Notes: generated by a model from the sequence alone, not told the origin. DNA of 64,000 nt from Oscillospiraceae bacterium (GCA_009777355.1 WRMA01000001.1:28505-92504); one strand, 5' to 3'. Positions 10,426 to 58,598 are shown, numbered from the stretch's first letter. Made by a program: numbers and translations.

Positions 10426-10562
10426 CCTTTCTTAAATTTTTAAATTTAAATAAATATATAAAAACCGCGCAAATAATCCCGATTCAATCGCGCGGTTCGC
10501 ATACGTTAAGAACAGCGGAGCCGGCTTTTTTTTTCAAAAAAAGCGGCTGTCCAAAACATAAT

Positions 10563-10650
10563 CTTCCCTACGTTGGCATTACCCATATCAGGTTATAAGG
10601 GACAGCGGATTTTTACTTAAATCCGCATCTCAGCCCTGCGGCGCCCCCGA
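10563..10650 (-). promoter_or_regulatory. TPP (THI-box) riboswitch
   Basis: The minus strand reads GGGGCGCCGCAGGGCUGAGAUGCGG...CCGCUGUCCCUUAUAACCUGAUAUGGGUAAUGCCAACGUAGGGAAG. It contains the CUGAGA and ACCUGAU..GGNUAAUGCC..CGUAGGGAA cores. Confidence 0.9.
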
Positions 10651-10696
10651 CTATTTAATTGCGGTTATTATTTTTTATGAGTTTCAGCAAAGTTTC

Positions 10697-10840
10697 TTAT
10701 TTCTTCTCGAAAACCGTTTTGATACCGTCGCCTTCAAGCGTCAGTTTATTCCCGTCGAGAGTTCCTTTTACGGTTTCTCCGCCGCTTGTTATCTCTATAG
10801 ACTTACCGTTTATTTCAAAATTTTTTATATTTATACCACT
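10697..10840 (-). pseudogene. 47-codon C-terminal gene remnant (..NFEINGKSIEITSGGETVKGTLDGNKLTLEGDGIKTVFEKK*) lacking any ATG/GTG/TTG start
   Basis: My own translation. The open frame is bounded upstream by TAA at 10841-10843 and has no canonical start. Confidence 0.45.
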
Positions 10841-10847
10841 TTAATCA

Positions 10848-10876
10848 ATTATAGCAGTATATTACTCTTATGTCAA
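10848..10876 (-). promoter_or_regulatory. Consensus promoter TTGACA-N17-TATAAT firing toward the remnant, TPP riboswitch and thiT
   Basis: -35 at 10871-10876 and -10 at 10848-10853, read on the minus strand. Confidence 0.6.
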
Positions 10877-10916
10877 TATATTTTTAAGCGAACGCCATAA
10901 ATTTTTTTATTTTTGC

Positions 10917-10945
10917 TTGACAATAATAAACAATCGTGATATAAT
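10917..10945 (+). promoter_or_regulatory. Consensus promoter TTGACA-N17-TATAAT for candidate antisense RNA (copy L)
   Basis: -35 at 10917-10922 and -10 at 10940-10945. Confidence 0.6.
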
Positions 10946-10951
10946 TAAATA

Positions 10952-11086
10952 TGCAAATGAAAGAAAGAGCGGTGTAACGCTCTCTCAATCAGCCGCGCCG
11001 GCCGCTTAAGGCGGCAGGCTTTGCGTAGTTTAAGTTTTAATTAAACGCCGCTAGTCCTTGCTGGGAGGGCGGCGTTTACTTTTTAT
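10952..11086 (+). ncRNA. Candidate ~135-nt antisense sRNA (copy L), convergent with the small ORF
   Basis: Bounded by the promoter above and by hairpin 11043-11077 followed by ACTTTTTAT. An internal hairpin at 10966-10983 is preserved by a compensatory change relative to copy R. Confidence 0.45.
11043..11077. terminator. Shared (bidirectional) hairpin AAACGCCGC...GCGGCGTTT at the 3' end of the small ORF
   Basis: 9-bp stem with a T-run on the plus-strand side. It overlaps the last codons of the ORF. Confidence 0.55.
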
Positions 11087-11167
11087 CACATTTATTATAT
11101 ATTTTACCGGTTCAATAAAATCCGGAAGAAAATATATTACTAAAAATAATATTTCGCAAACATACAT
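11051..11167 (-). CDS. Small ORF, 38 aa MYVCEILFLVIYFLPDFIEPVKYIINVIKSKRRPPSKD (hydrophobic N-terminus, basic tail); candidate type I toxin-like peptide
   Basis: RBS GAAAGGAG lies 7 nt before the ATG. Compared with copy R it shows 2 synonymous and 1 conservative change. Confidence 0.5.
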   Translation of the reverse strand: MYVCEILFLVIYFLPDFIEPVKYIINVIKSKRRPPSKD

Positions 11168-11310
11168 GAGCTTCACTCCTTTCAGTTGGATTTTTGCGAA
11201 GAAATAATATTCTTCAACCCTCCTTTCGGAACGCAAAGCCATGCCGCCCTTAACGCTGCGACGCGACATATATATTTTCTCATACTTCGACAGTTTTGTC
11301 AAGCGCTTTT

Positions 11311-12891
11311 TTATTTTTTCTGAAACGCAATCACAAAAGGCGCTTCGGGTATGTTTATAAGACGGTGATACAGACAGTCAAAAATTTTCCTGTCGAGATT
11401 TTCCGCAAATTCAAAAATTTTTTCGCCCTCTCTCGTTCCTTCCGAGTGTCCGGGATAAACGCAGACTACTATAACTCCTCCGGCTTTTAATATTTCAAGC
11501 GCGCCTTTTAAGCATATGAGCGTCGACTCTGTCAGGGTCGTTATCGATTTGTCTCCCCCGGGAAGATAACCGAGATTGAAAACCGCTCCGTCAAGCTCTG
11601 TTTCTTCCGGCATATATTTTCTGAAATTTCCGTGAGAATCGCGTATCAAATATATATTTTCATCAAAACAATTCTCGCTTTCAAGCCTTTCTTTTGTCGC
11701 TTCGAGAGCTTTTTGCTGTATGTCAAACGCATAAATTTCAGCTTTCGGACATTTCTTTTTTATATAAAGCGTATCGTGACCGTTACCCATGGTAAAATCG
11801 GCGTAAACTCCGCCGCCCGCCTCAAGGCTTCGGTTAATCGCGACGTCGAGCAGACGCTTCGCAAAGCTTAAAATATTCGTCAGTGATTTTTGTTCCGCCC
11901 CCCTTGCAGAAAGAGGCTGATGCGTTTCTCCTGATTTTTCTAATTTTTTCCCCTGATACGTTCCGCGTTTTGCCAACTCTTTGTCTATATCGTTTATAAC
12001 GGAAAATTTTTTGCTTACCCATTCCGGGAGGGTTTTATCGGATTTATCCGATATTTCGGGGTCTCCCGTAAGGCGCATTATAACTATTTCCGGCGGCAGT
12101 TCTTCAAGCTGCGATACGACAATATCTATATATTCTTCTTTTGACGGTAAATTTATTTTTCCCGAATTATATAAATCGTAAATTTCAGTTCCCGGCTCTA
12201 TATAAAGCGCATGGATTTTTACGCCGAGCGGCAAAGGGTCGAGACTTGCGATATATTTCGCGGTTTCAAGCATCATTTCATAATTTTCACCCGGCAGACC
12301 GTTTATAATATGAATAATTACCGGTATTTTATACTCCGCCAAAATTTTATACGCCTCTTCGAAAACTTCGAGCTTATATCCCCGGTTTATAATACCGGCC
12401 GTTTTATCGTGAAAAGTCTGCAATCCGAGTTCAACCGCCGTATCGAGCCCGGTTCTCACGCCTAATTCGCTTAAATATCCCGCGGTTTCGCCGGTTATAC
12501 AGTCCGGACGGGTCGCCGTATATATCCCGGCAAGATTATCTGTATCCAGAACGCTTTCGTAAACTCTTTTCAGTTCGTCAAGCGAAGCGAAAGTATTTGA
12601 CCCCGCCTGAAAATACGCGATATATTTAGTGTCTCTCCATTTTTTTGAGAGCGCTTCTTTTTTTATATCAAACTGTTTTACTATTTCCCCGGGAGACAGC
12701 AAACCCCCGTTTATATCCCCCGTCCGCGTTTGTATACCCCGGCAGAAAATACAGCCCCTTCCGGTCCGTTTTATATGAGGACAGGAAAAACCGGCGTCAA
12801 GCGCGATTTTCGCCGTCTTAACGCCGTATCTGTTTGCTAAATAATAATCGTAAGCGTGATAACGCTTGTTGTTCGGATATATAAAATTAAT
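11311..12891 (-). CDS. Fusion of a TIGR01212/YtqA-type radical SAM protein with a YtqB-type (PF06962-like) SAM methyltransferase; probable ATT start
   Basis: The C-terminal half has GNGHDT...FNLGYLPGGDKSITT. The Cys-cluster region (FSCPHIKRTGRGCIFC) lies in-frame upstream of the first canonical start at 12702. GGAGGA sits 7 nt before ATT at 12891. Confidence 0.8.
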   Translation of the reverse strand: MNFIYPNNKRYHAYDYYLANRYGVKTAKIALDAGFSCPHIKRTGRGCIFCRGIQTRTGDINGGLLSPGEIVKQFDIKKEALSKKWRDTKYIAYFQAGSNTFASLDELKRVYESVLDTDNLAGIYTATRPDCITGETAGYLSELGVRTGLDTAVELGLQTFHDKTAGIINRGYKLEVFEEAYKILAEYKIPVIIHIINGLPGENYEMMLETAKYIASLDPLPLGVKIHALYIEPGTEIYDLYNSGKINLPSKEEYIDIVVSQLEELPPEIVIMRLTGDPEISDKSDKTLPEWVSKKFSVINDIDKELAKRGTYQGKKLEKSGETHQPLSARGAEQKSLTNILSFAKRLLDVAINRSLEAGGGVYADFTMGNGHDTLYIKKKCPKAEIYAFDIQQKALEATKERLESENCFDENIYLIRDSHGNFRKYMPEETELDGAVFNLGYLPGGDKSITTLTESTLICLKGALEILKAGGVIVVCVYPGHSEGTREGEKIFEFAENLDRKIFDCLYHRLINIPEAPFVIAFQKK

Positions 12892-13680
12892 TTACGCGTC
12901 CTCCGGGTTTCTCTTTGTTATCTCATCGTAGAAAGCGGCCGAAATGATTCCCAGGAAAAGCGGCAGCAGAAGAGCCGCGGCAATAGCAAATATAATCAAA
13001 ACGACCATAAAAATAATACCGGCAACCGGTATCAGCGACAGCAGAAAGAGGATAAGCGCCGTAAGTCCGACTGCGAGACAGATAATAAAATCAACGAGGA
13101 ACATTTTGCCTTTATGGCCGTTCGTCTGAACCATGGATTTTTTCAAAGCCTCCGTCGCGGGTATATCGGGTTCGCCCAGCATTATGTAGGGAACAAATCT
13201 GTAAGAATAAGACTTGATAACGGCGAAAACGAATCCGGCGAACGGAATAAGCCCCCAGATAAACACCCACAGACTCATCCATGCCATCCCTCCCGCGTTA
13301 CGGAAAAATTTACTGCTGAATCCTTCGAAAAGCTGCGCCGAGCTTACTTGTTTGCCGCGGTATCCTTTGAGATAAATCGACGTCATGCCGAGCGAAAGAA
13401 CGAGCGTCACCGCGATTCCCAACCCCGGTATTCCCAGAAACATAAAGCTTGCAAGCATCGCCAAAATAGAGTAGAGAAGCGAAAGCCCCCAAAGCAGCAG
13501 GGGTTTTTTCAGAAGAAACCTCGCCGATTTTGAGACGACGTCTCCGACCATACCCGTTTTTTCAAGACTCTGAGTAATATTCCGGGTCTGTTTCGCTTCG
13601 CCTCCGCCGAGACTGCTCCCGCAGTCGCTGCAGAACAGGCTGCCGTCGTTGTTCTGAACTCCGCATTTTGAACAAAACAT
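12892..13680 (-). CDS. Membrane protein with N-terminal zinc ribbon (CSKCG...CSDCG) and DUF975-like multi-TM domain
   Basis: 262 aa with an AGGAGG RBS. CxxC-x14-CxxC is followed by 5-6 TM segments. Confidence 0.8.
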   Translation of the reverse strand: MFCSKCGVQNNDGSLFCSDCGSSLGGGEAKQTRNITQSLEKTGMVGDVVSKSARFLLKKPLLLWGLSLLYSILAMLASFMFLGIPGLGIAVTLVLSLGMTSIYLKGYRGKQVSSAQLFEGFSSKFFRNAGGMAWMSLWVFIWGLIPFAGFVFAVIKSYSYRFVPYIMLGEPDIPATEALKKSMVQTNGHKGKMFLVDFIICLAVGLTALILFLLSLIPVAGIIFMVVLIIFAIAAALLLPLFLGIISAAFYDEITKRNPEDA

Positions 13681-13745
13681 GATAAATCCTCCTTAAAAAT
13701 AATAATATTTACGTTATTTTATTAATATATTTTAAAATTACTTAA

Positions 13746-13775
13746 ATTATAACATAATATTATTAAATTTGTCAA
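13746..13775 (-). promoter_or_regulatory. Promoter TTGACA-N18-TATAAT for the zinc-ribbon/radical-SAM gene pair
   Basis: Hexamers read on the minus strand, ~65 nt upstream of the start at 13680. Confidence 0.55.
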
Positions 13776-13928
13776 GCAGTTATAAAAAAACTCTTGACAA
13801 AAATGTCGAAATGCGCGAAAATATATATGTCGCGTCGCAGCGTTAAGGGCGGCATGGCTTTGCGTTCCGAAAGGAGGGTTGAAGAAAACTATTTCTTCGC
13901 AAAAATCCAACTGAAAGGAGTGAAGCTC

Positions 13929-14036
13929 ATGTATGTTTGCGAAATATTATTTTTAGTAATATATTTCCTGCCGGATTTTATTGAACCGGTAAAATATATA
14001 ATAAATCTGATAAAAAGTAAACGCCGCCCCCAATAG
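13929..14036 (+). CDS. Small ORF, 35 aa MYVCEILFLVIYFLPDFIEPVKYIINLIKSKRRPQ; candidate type I toxin-like peptide
   Basis: RBS GAAAGGAG lies 7 nt upstream. A TTGACA box at 13794-13799 precedes a ~100-nt leader. Confidence 0.5.
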   Translation: MYVCEILFLVIYFLPDFIEPVKYIINLIKSKRRPQ

Positions 14037-14164
14037 CAAAGGTTTGCGGCGTTTATAAATTATAATCTACGCAAAGCCTGCCGCCTTAAGCGGCCGGCGC
14101 GGCTGATTGAGAGAGTGTTAGCAGCACTCTTTCTTTCATTTCTGTCTGTCGGACAGACAGGCAC
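14010..14164 (-). ncRNA. Candidate ~155-nt antisense sRNA (copy R)
   Basis: Runs from the consensus promoter at 14171-14199 to the shared hairpin. It has a 5' hairpin CCTGTCTGTCCGACAGACAG and the hairpin AGAGTG/CACTCT. Confidence 0.45.
14019..14054. terminator. Shared hairpin AAACGCCGC...GCGGCGTTT overlapping the ORF stop
   Basis: 9-bp stem. The T-run (ACTTTTTAT) is on the minus-strand side, so it fits termination of the antisense RNA. A second hairpin at 14112-14130 followed by TTCTTTCATTTCT fits the plus-strand mRNA. Confidence 0.55.
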
Positions 14165-14170
14165 ACACTA

Positions 14171-14199
14171 ATTATATCACGATTGTTTACTAATGTCAA
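14171..14199 (-). promoter_or_regulatory. Consensus promoter TTGACA-N17-TATAAT for the antisense RNA (copy R)
   Basis: -35 at 14194-14199 and -10 at 14171-14176 on the minus strand. Confidence 0.6.
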
Positions 14200-14231
14200 G
14201 CGAATATAAAAAAATAGATATCTGCAAAATA

Positions 14232-16220
14232 TTACCTCGATATTTTATACGCCGCCGCCGTTCTTTTCTCCAATATAAAATCAGATTTTTCTTCAGAATC
14301 CCTCTCTTTTTTCCAACCGCCGAATCTTTCCCACGACGTGTCCAGTATTTTTTTATAATTTCCGAATAAATTTTTTGATTTTAAGACCTCTCCGAAATCA
14401 TAGCTTCCGGATACGCGGAAATTAAACAGAAACAACAGATTATCTTTTTTGAACGCAATAATTTTCTCTTCCTCGCCTATATATAAACTCTCCGAATTAT
14501 ATTTTAATATATTATTTTTCCCCGCAAGCTTTATTAACGCTTCATCGAAATTCTGTAAATATTTATATTTTAAATCCTGATTATCAGCAAGACTCCAGAG
14601 TCTTCTCGCATAATGATAACTGTCGTTATTTTCCGGTCTGGGAAAGTCTATCCATTCGGGGTGTCCGAACTCGTTGCCCATAAAATTTAAATAGCCTTCA
14701 CCCGCGCACATACACGTTATCAGTCTTATTAATTTATGCAGGGAAACCGCCCGTTCTACAACTAAACTATCAGAATCCTCATGCATATTCCAGTACATTT
14801 CTTTGTCCGCGAGCCAGAACATAATAGTCTTATCCCCGACGAGAGCCTGGTCGTGCGATTCGCAGTAGCCTATGACTTTTTCTTTCGGACGTCTCTGCGT
14901 CAGTTCCCAGAATATATGCCCCATATGCCAGTCCTCGTCCTGTTTAGTCCTGAGATTTTTAACCCAGAAATCGGGCGTTCCCATACCCAGCCTGTAATCG
15001 AACCCCAAACCTCCCCATTTTACCGGCAGGCACATTCCCGGCATACCGCTCATATCTTCGGCAATTAATATGCAGTCCGGCTTAATTTCTTTGCACAAAT
15101 CAGACGCGAGCTGCAAGTAAGCGACGGACTCCAAATCTGTATTCGGCGAAAAATACTTATTATAATTATCAAAAGATTCCCCCAGACCGTGGTCATGATA
15201 CAGCATAGAAGTTACCCCGTCGAATCTGAACCCGTCGAATTTATATTCCTCAAGCCAGAATTTTAAATTGGACAAAAGAAAATGCAGAACCTCGCCTTTG
15301 CCGTAATCAAACAATCTCGTTCCCCACGTGGGGTGCGAGCCTCTTTCTCCCGCATGAAAATACTGATACTCCGTTCCGTCGAATTTCGCTAACCCTTCGT
15401 CGGCGTTCGGCGCGGCGTGCGAGTGAACCAAATCGAGCAGGACGGCGATTCCCATTTCGTGAGCCGTATCTATCAGCCGTTTTAATTCTTCGGGCGTTCC
15501 GAATCTCGACGAAACTGCGAAAAAATTAGATACCTGATAACCGAACGACCCGTAATACGGATGCTCTGCGATTGCCATAAGCTGAATCGTGTTATACCCC
15601 AGTTTCTTCACCCTCGGCAGAACAATATTTATATAGTCTGCAAATCCCGATACTTTTTCTTCTTCTCCGCACATTCCGACATGACTCTCATAAATCAGCG
15701 GCGTTTTGATTTTTTTTATGTCAAAATTTTCAACCCGCCATTTATATTTACTGTCCCAGACCTGACCGTAAAACTCGAAAGTCTCGGGATTCTGCTCAAC
15801 TCTTCTGCAATACGCCGGGATTCTGTCGAAGATTTCCCCGTTTGCCTTTATTCTTATTTTAATTTTTGATTCGTGAGGCAGGGAATTGATTCCCGGTATA
15901 AAAATCTCCCAAACCCCCGGGATTTGCGATTCGGACGGCTTTAATTTATGCGATTTGTCATTCCAGCCGTTAAACTCGCCGATAAGAGAAATCTCTTCGG
16001 CGTTCGGAGCCCATTCCCTATAATACCAGCCGTTATTTTTCTTTGATTTATGAAACCCGAAATATAAATGCCCGTTCGCGAAATCCGACAAACTTTTTGT
16101 ATTATTCAAAAGCTTTTTTTTAAGCTTCGCGTAATTTTTCATGCGCAGCTCTATATCGCCGCCGTAATCGTTCAGATATTTATCAATCTCAAGTATTTTA
16201 TATTTATATTTTTTACCCAT
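14232..16220 (-). CDS. glgB: 1,4-alpha-glucan branching enzyme (GH13)
   Basis: 662 aa with GH13 catalytic regions DLVHSHAA, GFRFDGVTSM and IAEDMSG, plus an N-terminal CBM48-like region. Confidence 0.9.
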   Translation of the reverse strand: MGKKYKYKILEIDKYLNDYGGDIELRMKNYAKLKKKLLNNTKSLSDFANGHLYFGFHKSKKNNGWYYREWAPNAEEISLIGEFNGWNDKSHKLKPSESQIPGVWEIFIPGINSLPHESKIKIRIKANGEIFDRIPAYCRRVEQNPETFEFYGQVWDSKYKWRVENFDIKKIKTPLIYESHVGMCGEEEKVSGFADYINIVLPRVKKLGYNTIQLMAIAEHPYYGSFGYQVSNFFAVSSRFGTPEELKRLIDTAHEMGIAVLLDLVHSHAAPNADEGLAKFDGTEYQYFHAGERGSHPTWGTRLFDYGKGEVLHFLLSNLKFWLEEYKFDGFRFDGVTSMLYHDHGLGESFDNYNKYFSPNTDLESVAYLQLASDLCKEIKPDCILIAEDMSGMPGMCLPVKWGGLGFDYRLGMGTPDFWVKNLRTKQDEDWHMGHIFWELTQRRPKEKVIGYCESHDQALVGDKTIMFWLADKEMYWNMHEDSDSLVVERAVSLHKLIRLITCMCAGEGYLNFMGNEFGHPEWIDFPRPENNDSYHYARRLWSLADNQDLKYKYLQNFDEALIKLAGKNNILKYNSESLYIGEEEKIIAFKKDNLLFLFNFRVSGSYDFGEVLKSKNLFGNYKKILDTSWERFGGWKKERDSEEKSDFILEKRTAAAYKISR

Positions 16221-23103: not shown

Positions 23104-23220
23104 ATAATAAATGAAGAAGTTAAGGTAAACAGCAGAGATAATCAGTCCAGACTGCCGGGTGGACCGTTTTTCGGTTCTTGCGATGAAGGGGTGACTGTCC
23201 TTCTGCCTTAACTTCTTTTT
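23104..23220 (+). ncRNA. Candidate ~115-nt structured RNA closed by a 12-bp helix AAGAAGUUAAGG/CCUUAACUUCUU plus a U-run
   Basis: The promoter, closing helix (23114-23125 with 23206-23217), T7 tract and internal hairpins were all read directly. I recognise no known RNA class. Confidence 0.45.
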
Positions 23221-23513
23221 TTCATTCTTTTGAGATTATTGTCGTTAATTTTCATCAAATGCACTATTTCAAAGCAGTTTTTAAGTTCAGACATTTCGAC
23301 CAGCGCCAATGAATTATCTCTGTCATTTATTTTGGCGACTAAATTAATATAATTATTTTTAAGACCGGGAAAATATGAGGGATTATTATATAACGACTGT
23401 CCGAGTAAATAATTATATTCTTTTTTGTCAATTTCGGGGTGTCTCGATAAATTCCGGTCAATAATACTCTTTTTCAGCAGCACCGGCTTGCTTGATTTCC
23501 CTAGTTTATCCAA
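23208..23513 (-). CDS. 101-aa ORF (TTG start) resembling the C-terminal nuclease-like (PBECR-type) module of phage/ICE polyvalent proteins; possibly a truncated remnant
   Basis: The pattern LG..KPVLLKKSII.RN..RHPEI...NP......LVAK....N.LALVE....FEIVH matches by recall only. The frame is open upstream to 23640 with no start. Confidence 0.4.
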   Translation of the reverse strand: MDKLGKSSKPVLLKKSIIDRNLSRHPEIDKKEYNYLLGQSLYNNPSYFPGLKNNYINLVAKINDRDNSLALVEMSELKNCFEIVHLMKINDNNLKRMKKRS

Positions 23514-35264: not shown

Positions 35265-35690
35265 TCAAGAAACGAAGTCCGGACGTAAATAGATATTTAT
35301 AATTTCAAGTTTGCTTTCGATTATTTGTCCGTCGCTTAAATCCTCGCTCAGCAAATAAGCGCACCCGCTTTCAAGAGCGGCGGCAATAACAAGACTGTCG
35401 TAATATGAATACCCGTAGCGTTTCTTTATGTCTAACGCTTTTTTTATCCATTCCTGCCGTATTACTACAACTTCGCAGGTTGATAATACTGCGTCAATAA
35501 ATTGTTTCGTTAAGTCAATATCTACGGCAAATTGTTTCGTGAATACATTGCATATCTCACTCAAAACCTGCGCGCTTGTTATGCAATTAAGATTATTAAT
35601 CGCTAATTCGGACAGTTCTTTTTTTTGTTTCCCTTTTTCAGACTGCATATAAATAAAAACATTAGTGTCCACAAAAACTCTATCGTTCAT
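35265..35690 (-). CDS. vapC: PIN-domain ribonuclease toxin VapC
   Basis: MNDRVFVDTNVFIY..., with conserved D/E/D positions. It overlaps the antitoxin stop by 11 nt. Confidence 0.8.
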   Translation of the reverse strand: MNDRVFVDTNVFIYMQSEKGKQKKELSELAINNLNCITSAQVLSEICNVFTKQFAVDIDLTKQFIDAVLSTCEVVVIRQEWIKKALDIKKRYGYSYYDSLVIAAALESGCAYLLSEDLSDGQIIESKLEIINIYLRPDFVS

Positions 35691-35880
35691 TAGCTTCCTC
35701 CCTGTCAAATTTATATCCGGTTGTGTCTATCGTAAAATCGGGAAAAAGACTTTTTTTATCCGGTACGGATTCTTCAGTTAATACGATAACTTTAATTTTT
35801 GAGATAATTTTTTTCTTGTACTCGTCAGGTATGGGTATAATTCCGTTATGAACGAAAGTTTGAAATTCGTATGCCCGCAT
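35680..35880 (-). CDS. Small antitoxin partner of VapC (66 aa)
   Basis: Position and overlap are typical of type II TA. The fold was not recognised. Confidence 0.6.
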   Translation of the reverse strand: MRAYEFQTFVHNGIIPIPDEYKKKIISKIKVIVLTEESVPDKKSLFPDFTIDTTGYKFDREEANER

Positions 35881-58056: not shown

Positions 58057-58332
58057 ATGGCGCAGATAAATATAAGAATAGACGACGACTTAAAAAACAA
58101 CGCGGAAACTTTGTTTGCCGATTTGGGACTTAATATAACGACGGCGATAAATATGTTCATACGTCAGGCAGTCCGTCAGAGAGGCATACCGTTTGAAGTA
58201 ACAAAAAATGCCGACCCGTTCTGGAACGACGCAAATCAGGCTCATCTGAGAAAAGTTATAGCGGAATTTGAATCCGGCAAAGGAAAGTTTATAGAAAAAA
58301 CAATAGAAGAGTTAGAGGCGATGGAAGAATGA
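58057..58332 (+). CDS. RelB/DinJ-family antitoxin
   Basis: MAQINIRIDDDLKNNAETLFADLGLNITTAINMFIRQ. 4-nt overlap with the toxin gene. Confidence 0.8.
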   Translation: MAQINIRIDDDLKNNAETLFADLGLNITTAINMFIRQAVRQRGIPFEVTKNADPFWNDANQAHLRKVIAEFESGKGKFIEKTIEELEAMEE

Positions 58333-58598
58333 GAAAAATATTGCAATTTATGTCGCAAGGCTGGGAAGATTATTTATATTGGCAGACTCAGGATAAAAAG
58401 ATTCTCAAACGAGTCAATAAATTAATACGGGATATTGAACGGAACGGATATGAGGGTATTGGAAAACCGGAACCGTTAAAACACGGTTTATCGGGATACT
58501 GGAGCCGCGAAATAGACGAAACAAACAGAATAGTATATAAAATTACGGACGATGAAATTGTTATTTTTTCCTGTCGTACTCACTACGGAGATAAATAA
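58329..58598 (+). CDS. yoeB: Txe/YoeB-family mRNA interferase toxin
   Basis: WEDYLYWQ..DKK...RVN.LI.DI.R...EGIGKPEPLK..LSGYWSR.ID..NR.VY. Confidence 0.85.
   Translation: MRKILQFMSQGWEDYLYWQTQDKKILKRVNKLIRDIERNGYEGIGKPEPLKHGLSGYWSREIDETNRIVYKITDDEIVIFSCRTHYGDK

Follow-up and report, generated by a model that had tools for sequence, protein, structure and literature searches.

In Bacillus subtilis, the type I toxin-antitoxin module bsrG/SR4 comprises an mRNA of ~294 nucleotides (nt) for a toxin of 38 amino acids (aa) and an antisense RNA directed against the 3' end of that mRNA; SR4 has the stronger of the two promoters, and binding of the antitoxin lengthens a 4-bp helix that covers the Shine-Dalgarno (SD) sequence of bsrG (PMC3834814). 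Prophages of Clostridioides difficile carry type I modules (for example CD0956.2/RCd10 and CD0904.1) whose 34-53-aa toxins have charged C-termini and which occur as several paralogues per genome (PMC6563280), and in Escherichia coli the paralogous modules zorO-orzO and zorP-orzP lie close together in the chromosome (PMC3919570). Here we analysed a 64,000-nt stretch of DNA from an uncultured member of the Oscillospiraceae (GCA_009777355.1, WRMA01000001.1:28505-92504; the window), in which two inverted repeats of ~420 bp, called arms below, bracket a 2.5-kb segment with two genes. The best explanation, to which we assign a probability of about two in three, is that each arm is a complete, self-contained type I toxin-antitoxin module with the layout of bsrG/SR4 and that the inverted placement is incidental. 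In E. coli, further clustered or duplicated chromosomal type I loci are ibs/sib and ldr/rdl, and the clustered arrays of that species are tandem and direct. The window resembles them in that a sister-strain contig carries a further copy abutting the right arm, and differs in that its two copies are inverted, with resident genes between them.

Architecture of the inverted modules

The left arm (10901-11314, 414 bp), with one complete module, is the reverse complement of the right arm (13782-14215, 434 bp), which holds the second module in opposite orientation. A repeat finder joined the two arms by five collinear inverted blocks, the largest pairing 11067-11314 with 13782-14029 (248 nt, 95% identity), followed by 10975-11039/14056-14120 (65 nt, 92%), 10901-10947/14169-14215 (47 nt, 91%) and two blocks of lesser length. 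Both arms contain identical stretches of 77, 70, 49 and 36 nt, and their difference in length comes mainly from 20 nt inserted at the 5' end of the right small RNA. Gapped alignment with blastn gave 86.9% identity over 436 columns and 92.4% at ungapped positions, and an alignment restricted to the module gave 91.3% at ungapped positions; these values (91-92% ungapped, 87% with gaps) agree with an initial annotation of the window that had put the arms at about nine in ten identical positions. That annotation had located the arms correctly, at 10905-11306 and 13791-14205, but had missed their exact ends, and it had glgB ending 27 bp past the right copy where the actual distance is 16 bp (stop at 14232). 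A 55-nt core matched exactly at two sites in the window, against a shuffled expectation of 0, and no third copy of the module was found by blastn inside the 64 kb.

Two contigs from a second sample (ERZ27257348), 99.7% identical to the window, carry junctions of the duplication. Contig L021 shows both inner arm junctions as in the window, and contig L031 shows the outer junction between glgB and the right arm together with the entire right arm, with 0 differences across it. These independent contigs ruled out an assembly artefact of one record and showed that the duplication is real.

In the left module, a consensus scan placed the antitoxin-RNA promoter (TTGACA-17-TATAAT with a TG extension, 12/12 consensus) at 10917-10945 on the plus strand, at the arm's outer edge and directed inward. 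The antisense RNA predicted downstream of it is ~134 nt long (10952-11085, plus strand) and folds into three stem-loops (-55 kcal/mol, z = -3.4), the last being a terminator with a U-tract; the ends of the antisense RNAs were set from promoter and terminator. On the other strand, the toxin promoter (TTGACA-17-GAAAAT, 10/12; 11274-11302, minus strand) was recognised by consensus scan and from the sequence; in both arms the toxin promoter lies at the inner edge, is directed outward and has a weaker consensus than the antisense promoter. The toxin mRNA predicted from the fold and a sub-threshold Rfam BsrG match is ~314 nt long (10955-11268, minus strand) and folds with -125 kcal/mol (z = -8.9), and a ~32-bp helix joins its extreme 5' end with its 3' end, so that each arm contains an internal inverted repeat. 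A GC-rich hairpin at 11042-11075, defined from sequence, folds and a terminator scan, is shared by the two transcripts: it is the terminator of the small RNA and also codes for the variable toxin C-terminus and stop, with its U-tract on the antisense strand and a poor U-tract on the toxin strand. The terminator scan gave a second terminator-like hairpin of the toxin mRNA at 10986-10963, ~100 nt beyond the shared one.

The right module has the same parts in mirror image. Its antitoxin-RNA promoter (12/12 with TG, consensus scan) lies at 14171-14199 on the minus strand, and its predicted antisense RNA is ~153 nt long (14012-14164, minus strand; -57 kcal/mol, z = -3.6). The antisense RNAs of the two arms form three or four stem-loops, and each ends in a GC-rich hairpin followed by a U-tract. 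The 20-nt insertion (14143-14164) adds an 8-bp hairpin, CUGUCUGU CCG ACAGACAG, at the 5' end of this RNA, and the left and right antitoxin RNAs may differ in stability owing to the extra hairpin. The right toxin promoter (13794-13822, plus strand; 10/12 by consensus scan) stands back-to-back with the promoter of the enclosed DUF975-like gene, and the right toxin mRNA was predicted at 13828-14142 (plus strand) from the Rfam BsrG match and the consensus fold. In that consensus fold, built from three full copies (the two arms and a phage-borne one), the long helix is kept, with two compensatory pairs in the helix and five overall; with three sequences compared, these changes are suggestive only as support for the helix. 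The predicted antisense RNA and mRNA overlap by ~130 nt, the antisense RNA being complementary to the whole 3' part of the mRNA, including the 3' strand of the helix. By sequence prediction, each arm has a cis-encoded antisense RNA with its own promoter and terminator that overlaps the toxin mRNA, as in type I systems.

The toxin open reading frame (ORF) encodes 38 aa in the left arm (MYVCEILFLVIYFLPDFIEPVKYIINVIKSKRRPPSKD; 11051-11167, minus strand) and 35 aa in the right arm (MYVCEILFLVIYFLPDFIEPVKYIINLIKSKRRPQ; 13929-14036, plus strand), as found by ORF calls, in each case behind AAAGGAG and a structured leader and with the common sequence MYVCEILFLVIYFLPDFIEPVKYIIN(V/L)IKSKRRP... in both. 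Over the first 33 codons, the right ORF differs from the left by two synonymous changes and one conservative change. The peptide has a Kyte-Doolittle mean of +1.5 over residues 1-28 and a net charge of +4 in its last 10 residues, and it is thus a short (<~60 aa) hydrophobic product with a charged end and its own ribosome-binding site, of the kind typical for type I toxins. The ORF is conserved in all five copies of the module that we collected, with changes that are mostly conservative and others that are synonymous. The longer ORFs of 80-83 aa in the public gene calls (FWH10_00200, FWH10_00215) are not credible: in a third copy from the same genome (P0122), the 35-38-aa part is conserved, whereas the upstream frame of the mechanical 83-aa ORF is broken. 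Searches with the peptide returned no Pfam family up to E = 10 and nothing meaningful from NCBIfam.

A scan of the window gave no Rfam family at gathering threshold in the arms. With relaxed thresholds, BsrG (RF01412) was the top match of each of the three full copies, at 21.7 bits for the left arm, 24.8 bits for the right arm (E 5e-4) and 22.9 bits for the phage copy, all below the gathering score of 55 bits that marks membership of RF01412; the match extends over the full model in the two arms and, for the phage copy, over model positions 31-147 out of 259. The architecture itself is BsrG-like, with an mRNA of ~300 nt, the SD sequence in a helix and an antisense RNA on the 3' end. The arms further share with bsrG/SR4 the convergent genes, the 38-aa peptide, the shortness of the helix that holds the SD sequence, the stronger antitoxin promoter and the association of the family with phages (PMC3834814). 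They differ from it in the low score (22-25 bits against 55), in a peptide that has no recognisable similarity to known toxin families, in the host, in a closing 5'-3' helix of ~32 bp that is much more extensive, and in being predicted from sequence. With the C. difficile prophage modules the arms have in common the class Clostridia, small toxins with charged C-termini, multiple paralogous copies and a phage location (PMC6563280); no sequence relationship to them was detected, and in contrast to them the window copies lie in a housekeeping region without nearby phage genes or a CRISPR array. Taken together, the arms are predicted to add a new and rare member to the type I toxin-antitoxin systems, from a previously undescribed family.

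In the mode of action that this layout suggests, the weaker promoter would produce the ~314-nt mRNA, whose 35-38-aa product is hydrophobic in its N-terminal part and ends in a basic tail. The 5' untranslated region (UTR) of the mRNA would pair with its own 3' end and its ribosome-binding site would sit in a small hairpin, and the toxin transcript is accordingly predicted to be poorly translated. From the other strand, the perfect-consensus promoter would give an RNA of ~135-153 nt with full complementarity to the final ~130 nt of the mRNA; if it acts as SR4 does, it would set off decay of the mRNA and reinforce the translation block.

Several points weigh against assigning the arms to type I systems. 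The peptide matches no toxin family in Pfam or NCBIfam, and with E, P and D inside its hydrophobic stretch it need not insert into membranes. The BsrG scores fall far under the gathering score, with E-values that are valid for the short searched stretches only, and the covariation is drawn from three sequences. Both RNAs and the peptide are predicted, with transcript ends placed by consensus motifs. As to the arrangement, two modules 2.5 kb apart are unlikely to arise by random placement, which implies some local mechanism or selection.

Other copies in the genome, a sister strain and phages

Five copies of the module were found in all, of which two lie in the window, one elsewhere in the same metagenome-assembled genome, one in a sister strain and one, in full, in a phage contig; the end of a second phage contig holds part of a sixth. 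The third copy of the genome, on a different contig of 23,676 bp (P0122 = MCL2095944.1, FWH10_03470), was found by protein search with the toxin MYVCDLLFLIIYFLPDFIEPARYITMIIKSKRRPK and is 78% identical over the mechanical ORF. Scans of viral and JGI metagenome contigs yielded the full phage copy (L024 = L025, positions 640-1075, 86% identity over ~305 nt) and the first 88 nt of another copy at a contig end (L026, 1386-1473, 92-94%), both from JGI Ga0099364 / IMG/VR 3300006226. The JGI metagenome scan gave two contigs from one metagenome, and a further scan of viral-contig DNA gave L024 again only. BLAST of an arm against phage and plasmid collections returned chance promoter-like matches only, and an nhmmer profile of the module, run over 367 kb of fetched loci, found no diverged copy beyond L021, L031, L024/L025 and L026.

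In L024 the module lies just before genes for tail sheath, tail tube and an XkdN-like protein, and in L026 it lies just after connector and tail-terminator genes. Judged by this gene context, the phage-borne modules appear to occupy a moron-like position within morphogenesis clusters. Outside this species, module copies were found only in such phage tail-gene clusters.

In the sister strain, a further, diverged module directly follows the right arm (L031 4718-5001; ENA ERZ27257348 k141_2264956). It is 82-89% identical to the arms, its toxin ends in ...ARYITMVIKSKRRPK, and the contig ends after it in the Illumina adapter AGATCGGAAGAGCACACGTCTGAACTC. Contig L021 from the same sample shares the last 119 nt of the arm and from there runs on into the DUF975 promoter, the junction seen in the window. 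Most simply, some strain or subpopulation would carry an additional module in tandem with the right arm; the branch may also reflect an inverted segment or a low-coverage chimeric path. L031 and L021 together point to heterogeneity in copy number or structure, or to a low-coverage path.

Comparison among the copies bears on the age of the pair. The right arm is 89% identical to the further sister-strain copy (91.5% over the small-RNA body), and the L026 phage fragment is 90-92% identical to each arm over the stretch covered. Since the arms themselves are ~9% diverged, about as far from each other as from the phage-borne and sister-strain copies, they are old paralogues or independent arrivals of related copies and no fresh duplication. 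The central ~150 nt (leader and ORF start) is near-identical between the arms, and because this part is conserved in the phage copy too, selection accounts for it and gene conversion is unneeded.

Enclosed genes and flanking sequence

The segment between the arms holds two genes, identified by Pfam and NCBIfam much as they had been described before. The first (12892-13680, minus strand) encodes a 262-aa zinc-ribbon and DUF975-like membrane protein, with Pfam matches to Zn_Ribbon_1 and to DUF975, the latter at 34.4 bits, just below the cut-off of 34.8. The second (11311-12891, minus strand, read from ATT) encodes a fusion of MnmL (YtqA, radical SAM) and MnmM (YtqB, methyltransferase), with NCBIfam matches to TIGR01212 (269 bits) and NF053511 (182 bits), both above curated cut-offs. 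MnmL and MnmM are tRNA U34 modification enzymes, and homologues of the window's fusion are 62-71% identical to it, with the N-terminus kept. The promoter of this enclosed operon, noticed earlier at 13746-13775 (minus strand), was borne out by a 12/12 match in the consensus scan. Its region (13742-13790) aligned with that of the antisense promoter (10902-10950) at 74.5% identity over 51 nt (E 0.02), and it may be what remains of a module since lost, or the likeness may be mere AT-rich consensus similarity.

In relatives, the genes of this locus are all co-directional, in the order chrA-chrA-(one gene)-glgB-(0-2 variable genes, often one for a zinc-ribbon membrane protein)-ytqAB fusion, and the window has the same gene order and relative orientation. 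Other zinc-ribbon membrane genes take the position of the first enclosed gene in relatives, and in L028 and L029 ytqAB follows glgB after 6 nt. Neither blastn nor a profile search of 367 kb found modules in the relatives' orthologous loci. GTDB genomes yielded DUF975 relatives of at most 50% identity, which lie without common neighbours or modules and are uninformative for synteny. Because the relatives have the same order and orientation without modules, the enclosed genes are resident, in ancestral orientation, with the modules as the insertions. An insertion of the 2.5-kb segment was ruled out by its shared order and orientation next to glgB. The initial annotation had suggested an origin by insertion or rearrangement, which held in general but not for the segment as the insert, the modules having come in around resident genes.

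The sequence to the left of the left arm includes the start-less gene remnant that had been noted beside it (10697-10840, minus strand). By tblastn, residues 96-137 of the 137-aa L028 protein encoded after ytqAB match 10819-10700 (43% identity, E 5e-7), which identifies the remnant as what is left, some ~47 C-terminal codons, of the relatives' gene behind ytqAB, with the last 42 aa of the L028 protein aligned. In the history that this suggests, two diverged paralogues of a small multi-copy family settled on either side of the resident pair downstream of glgB; the left insertion removed ~95 codons, the 5' two-thirds, of the downstream gene, and the right insertion placed a module with its terminator where glgB abuts ytqAB in L028/L029. 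Most likely, the inverted geometry is a by-product of local cassette accumulation and no functional device, and the inverted placement around resident genes, if unusual, is incidental.

Some features of the locus stand apart from the modules. The MnmL/MnmM gene has no ATG, GTG or TTG before the radical-SAM cysteine motif CPHIKRTGRGCIFC (12702-12891, 12885-12905, minus strand). The stop TAA of the DUF975-like gene lies in frame at the position of the relatives' ATG-AAA, followed by ATT AAT TTT ATA TAT, which corresponds to the relatives' ...NNFIY, and GGAGGA stands 7 nt upstream of the ATT. The sequence suggests translation from an ATT start or by termination-reinitiation. Public gene calls start MnmL/MnmM at TTG 12702 (463 aa) and, with the start put there, leave out the iron-sulfur cluster motif. 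A perfect consensus promoter with TG lies at 10848-10876 (minus strand), 25 bp outside the left arm, where it stands back-to-back with that arm's antisense promoter; transcription from it would cover the gene remnant for ~180 nt before it reached the thiamine pyrophosphate (TPP) riboswitch of thiT (10547-10658), an unusually long leader, and its role as the thiT promoter is uncertain. Around the locus the window is housekeeping DNA (pst/phoU/phoBR, thiT behind the TPP riboswitch, glgB, chrA, glmM, ruvABC). Elsewhere in it lie toxin-antitoxin genes of the protein type, namely a PIN-domain protein gene (35265-35708) and a RelB/YoeB pair next to comEC (58057-58598), and, between ruvA and ruvC, a 101-aa ORF with an LPD13 domain (large polyvalent protein-associated domain 13; 23208-23513).

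Alternative readings and consequences

Other explanations can be offered for what the arms are and for what they do. They might be a duplicated cis-antisense RNA pair or small-protein gene, acting as a regulator or as a terminator/insulator cassette and not as toxin-antitoxin modules, and the missing toxin-family HMM match, the sub-threshold Rfam match and the fact that the arms hold the only recognisable terminators after glgB and after ytqAB would fit this. We consider it unlikely, as the full set of type I hallmarks occurs together and is conserved across copies, including the phage-borne ones: a short hydrophobic/basic ORF with an SD sequence, pairing between the distant 5' and 3' parts, a convergent antisense promoter that is the stronger of the two, ~130 nt of overlap at the 3' end, occurrence in several copies and a link to phages. 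Inverted terminal copies around a gene cargo, with a truncated gene at one border, also recall a composite transposon, or some other mobile element, that brought in both genes between its ends. Against such an origin, Pfam gave no hit to a transposase, integrase or invertase in any ORF of at least 70 aa in the 64 kb, as the initial annotation had already stated, and the arms contain only the promoter-to-promoter toxin-antitoxin unit with its 35-38-aa ORF. The flanks share no direct repeat that could be a target-site duplication (CGCCATAA before and TTTTTCTG after the left arm, GATATCT before and AACTGCTT after the right arm), and the cargo ytqAB sits at its ancestral position and orientation next to glgB. 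A composite transposon was ruled out on these grounds, in keeping with the earlier view of the arrangement, and a mobile-element origin of the segment has next to no probability. The modules might, alternatively, be kept because they addict the cell to the flanked DNA and guard the segment against deletion. Stabilisation of prophages or genome regions is a proposed type I role in Bacillus and Clostridioides (PMC6563280, PMC3834814), and modules stand on both sides of the segment; yet MnmL/MnmM is a conserved resident gene that relatives keep there without any module, deletion between inverted copies would not specially remove both modules, and the occurrence of the same family as single copies inside phage tail clusters fits a selfish or phage-maintenance role that is not tied to the segment. 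That the modules stabilise the segment is speculation, and we rate it as slightly less likely than the antisense-cassette explanation.

The arms could also act as a recombination substrate, with a RecA-dependent crossover flipping the 2.5-kb segment as a reversible polymorphism of phenotypic consequence. Exact runs shared by the arms are longer than the minimum commonly given for RecA-dependent exchange, the window encodes ruvABC, and the second-sample assembly graph branches at the right arm's inner end, for which an inverted segment is one reading. RecA-mediated inversion is mechanistically possible because of the exact runs of 77 and 70 nt, and the analysis yielded no evidence in its favour. 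The synteny check around glgB in relatives that had been called for gave a single orientation of ytqAB, the ancestral one also seen in the window, in every relative that has glgB close by; the sign of the GC skew does not change across the segment; and the second-sample branch is more simply explained by a tandem third copy. Exchange between the arms was looked for in the two strains and no sign of it was seen, the right arm being identical between them and the four left-arm differences not being right-arm alleles. Homologous recombination between these arms should be slowed by their divergence of ~9%. No inverted form was seen, with the segment's orientation fixed in this record alone and the second-sample contigs breaking inside or just beyond the arms. 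Inversions between inverted rrn or IS repeats are comparable in that the repeats here are inverted and have long exact runs, and differ in that the divergence of the arms here is 9%, that the inverted form was not observed and that no phenotype would be expected to switch. Compared with site-specific switches (Hin/Gin/Fim), no recombinase gene was found here among ORFs of at least 70 aa, and the segment holds its own promoter and genes. Because the operon carries its own 12/12 promoter and terminators follow the inward-facing arm promoters, an inversion would be predicted to change no promoter-gene connection and to be functionally silent. A phenotypically relevant flip of the segment is improbable, about on a par with the stabilising role. 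The glgB-mnmLM locus of this lineage might be a hot spot at which a phage-derived cassette multiplies and reshuffles, with strains differing in copy number and the inverted pair perhaps flipping the operon, which is doubtful to the same degree as the antisense-cassette explanation. If it were true, the toxin-antitoxin family would itself be a cause of rearrangement in the chromosome around it, the loss of the downstream gene's 5' part included, and contig L031, which runs from the right arm into another module where the window has the DUF975 promoter, would record such reshuffling.

On the type I module reading, the insertions would also affect transcription of their neighbours. No terminator lies between the stop of the fusion gene (11311-11313) and the left toxin promoter, which starts 8 nt on, so transcripts of the enclosed operon probably run into the left toxin gene. 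On the other side, transcripts of glgB would run into the right antisense-RNA gene and end at its terminator. That terminator now lies between glgB and the enclosed operon, and the operon has its own consensus promoter; the enclosed genes may once have been coupled transcriptionally to glgB.

In practical terms, the inverted pair is no mobile element and is not evidently a switch. The locus shows how cassettes remodel their surroundings, with one gene truncated, the contact of glgB with ytqAB that L028/L029 show gone, the operon left with its own promoter and the ATG of ytqAB lost. As predicted here, the modules add a new type I family from uncultured Oscillospiraceae that occurs both in phage tail-gene clusters and at chromosomal sites and has an unusually long 5'-3' helix. 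Homology searches have difficulty in detecting type I systems, and no existing model matches the peptide of this family; the five collected copies could seed a covariance model.

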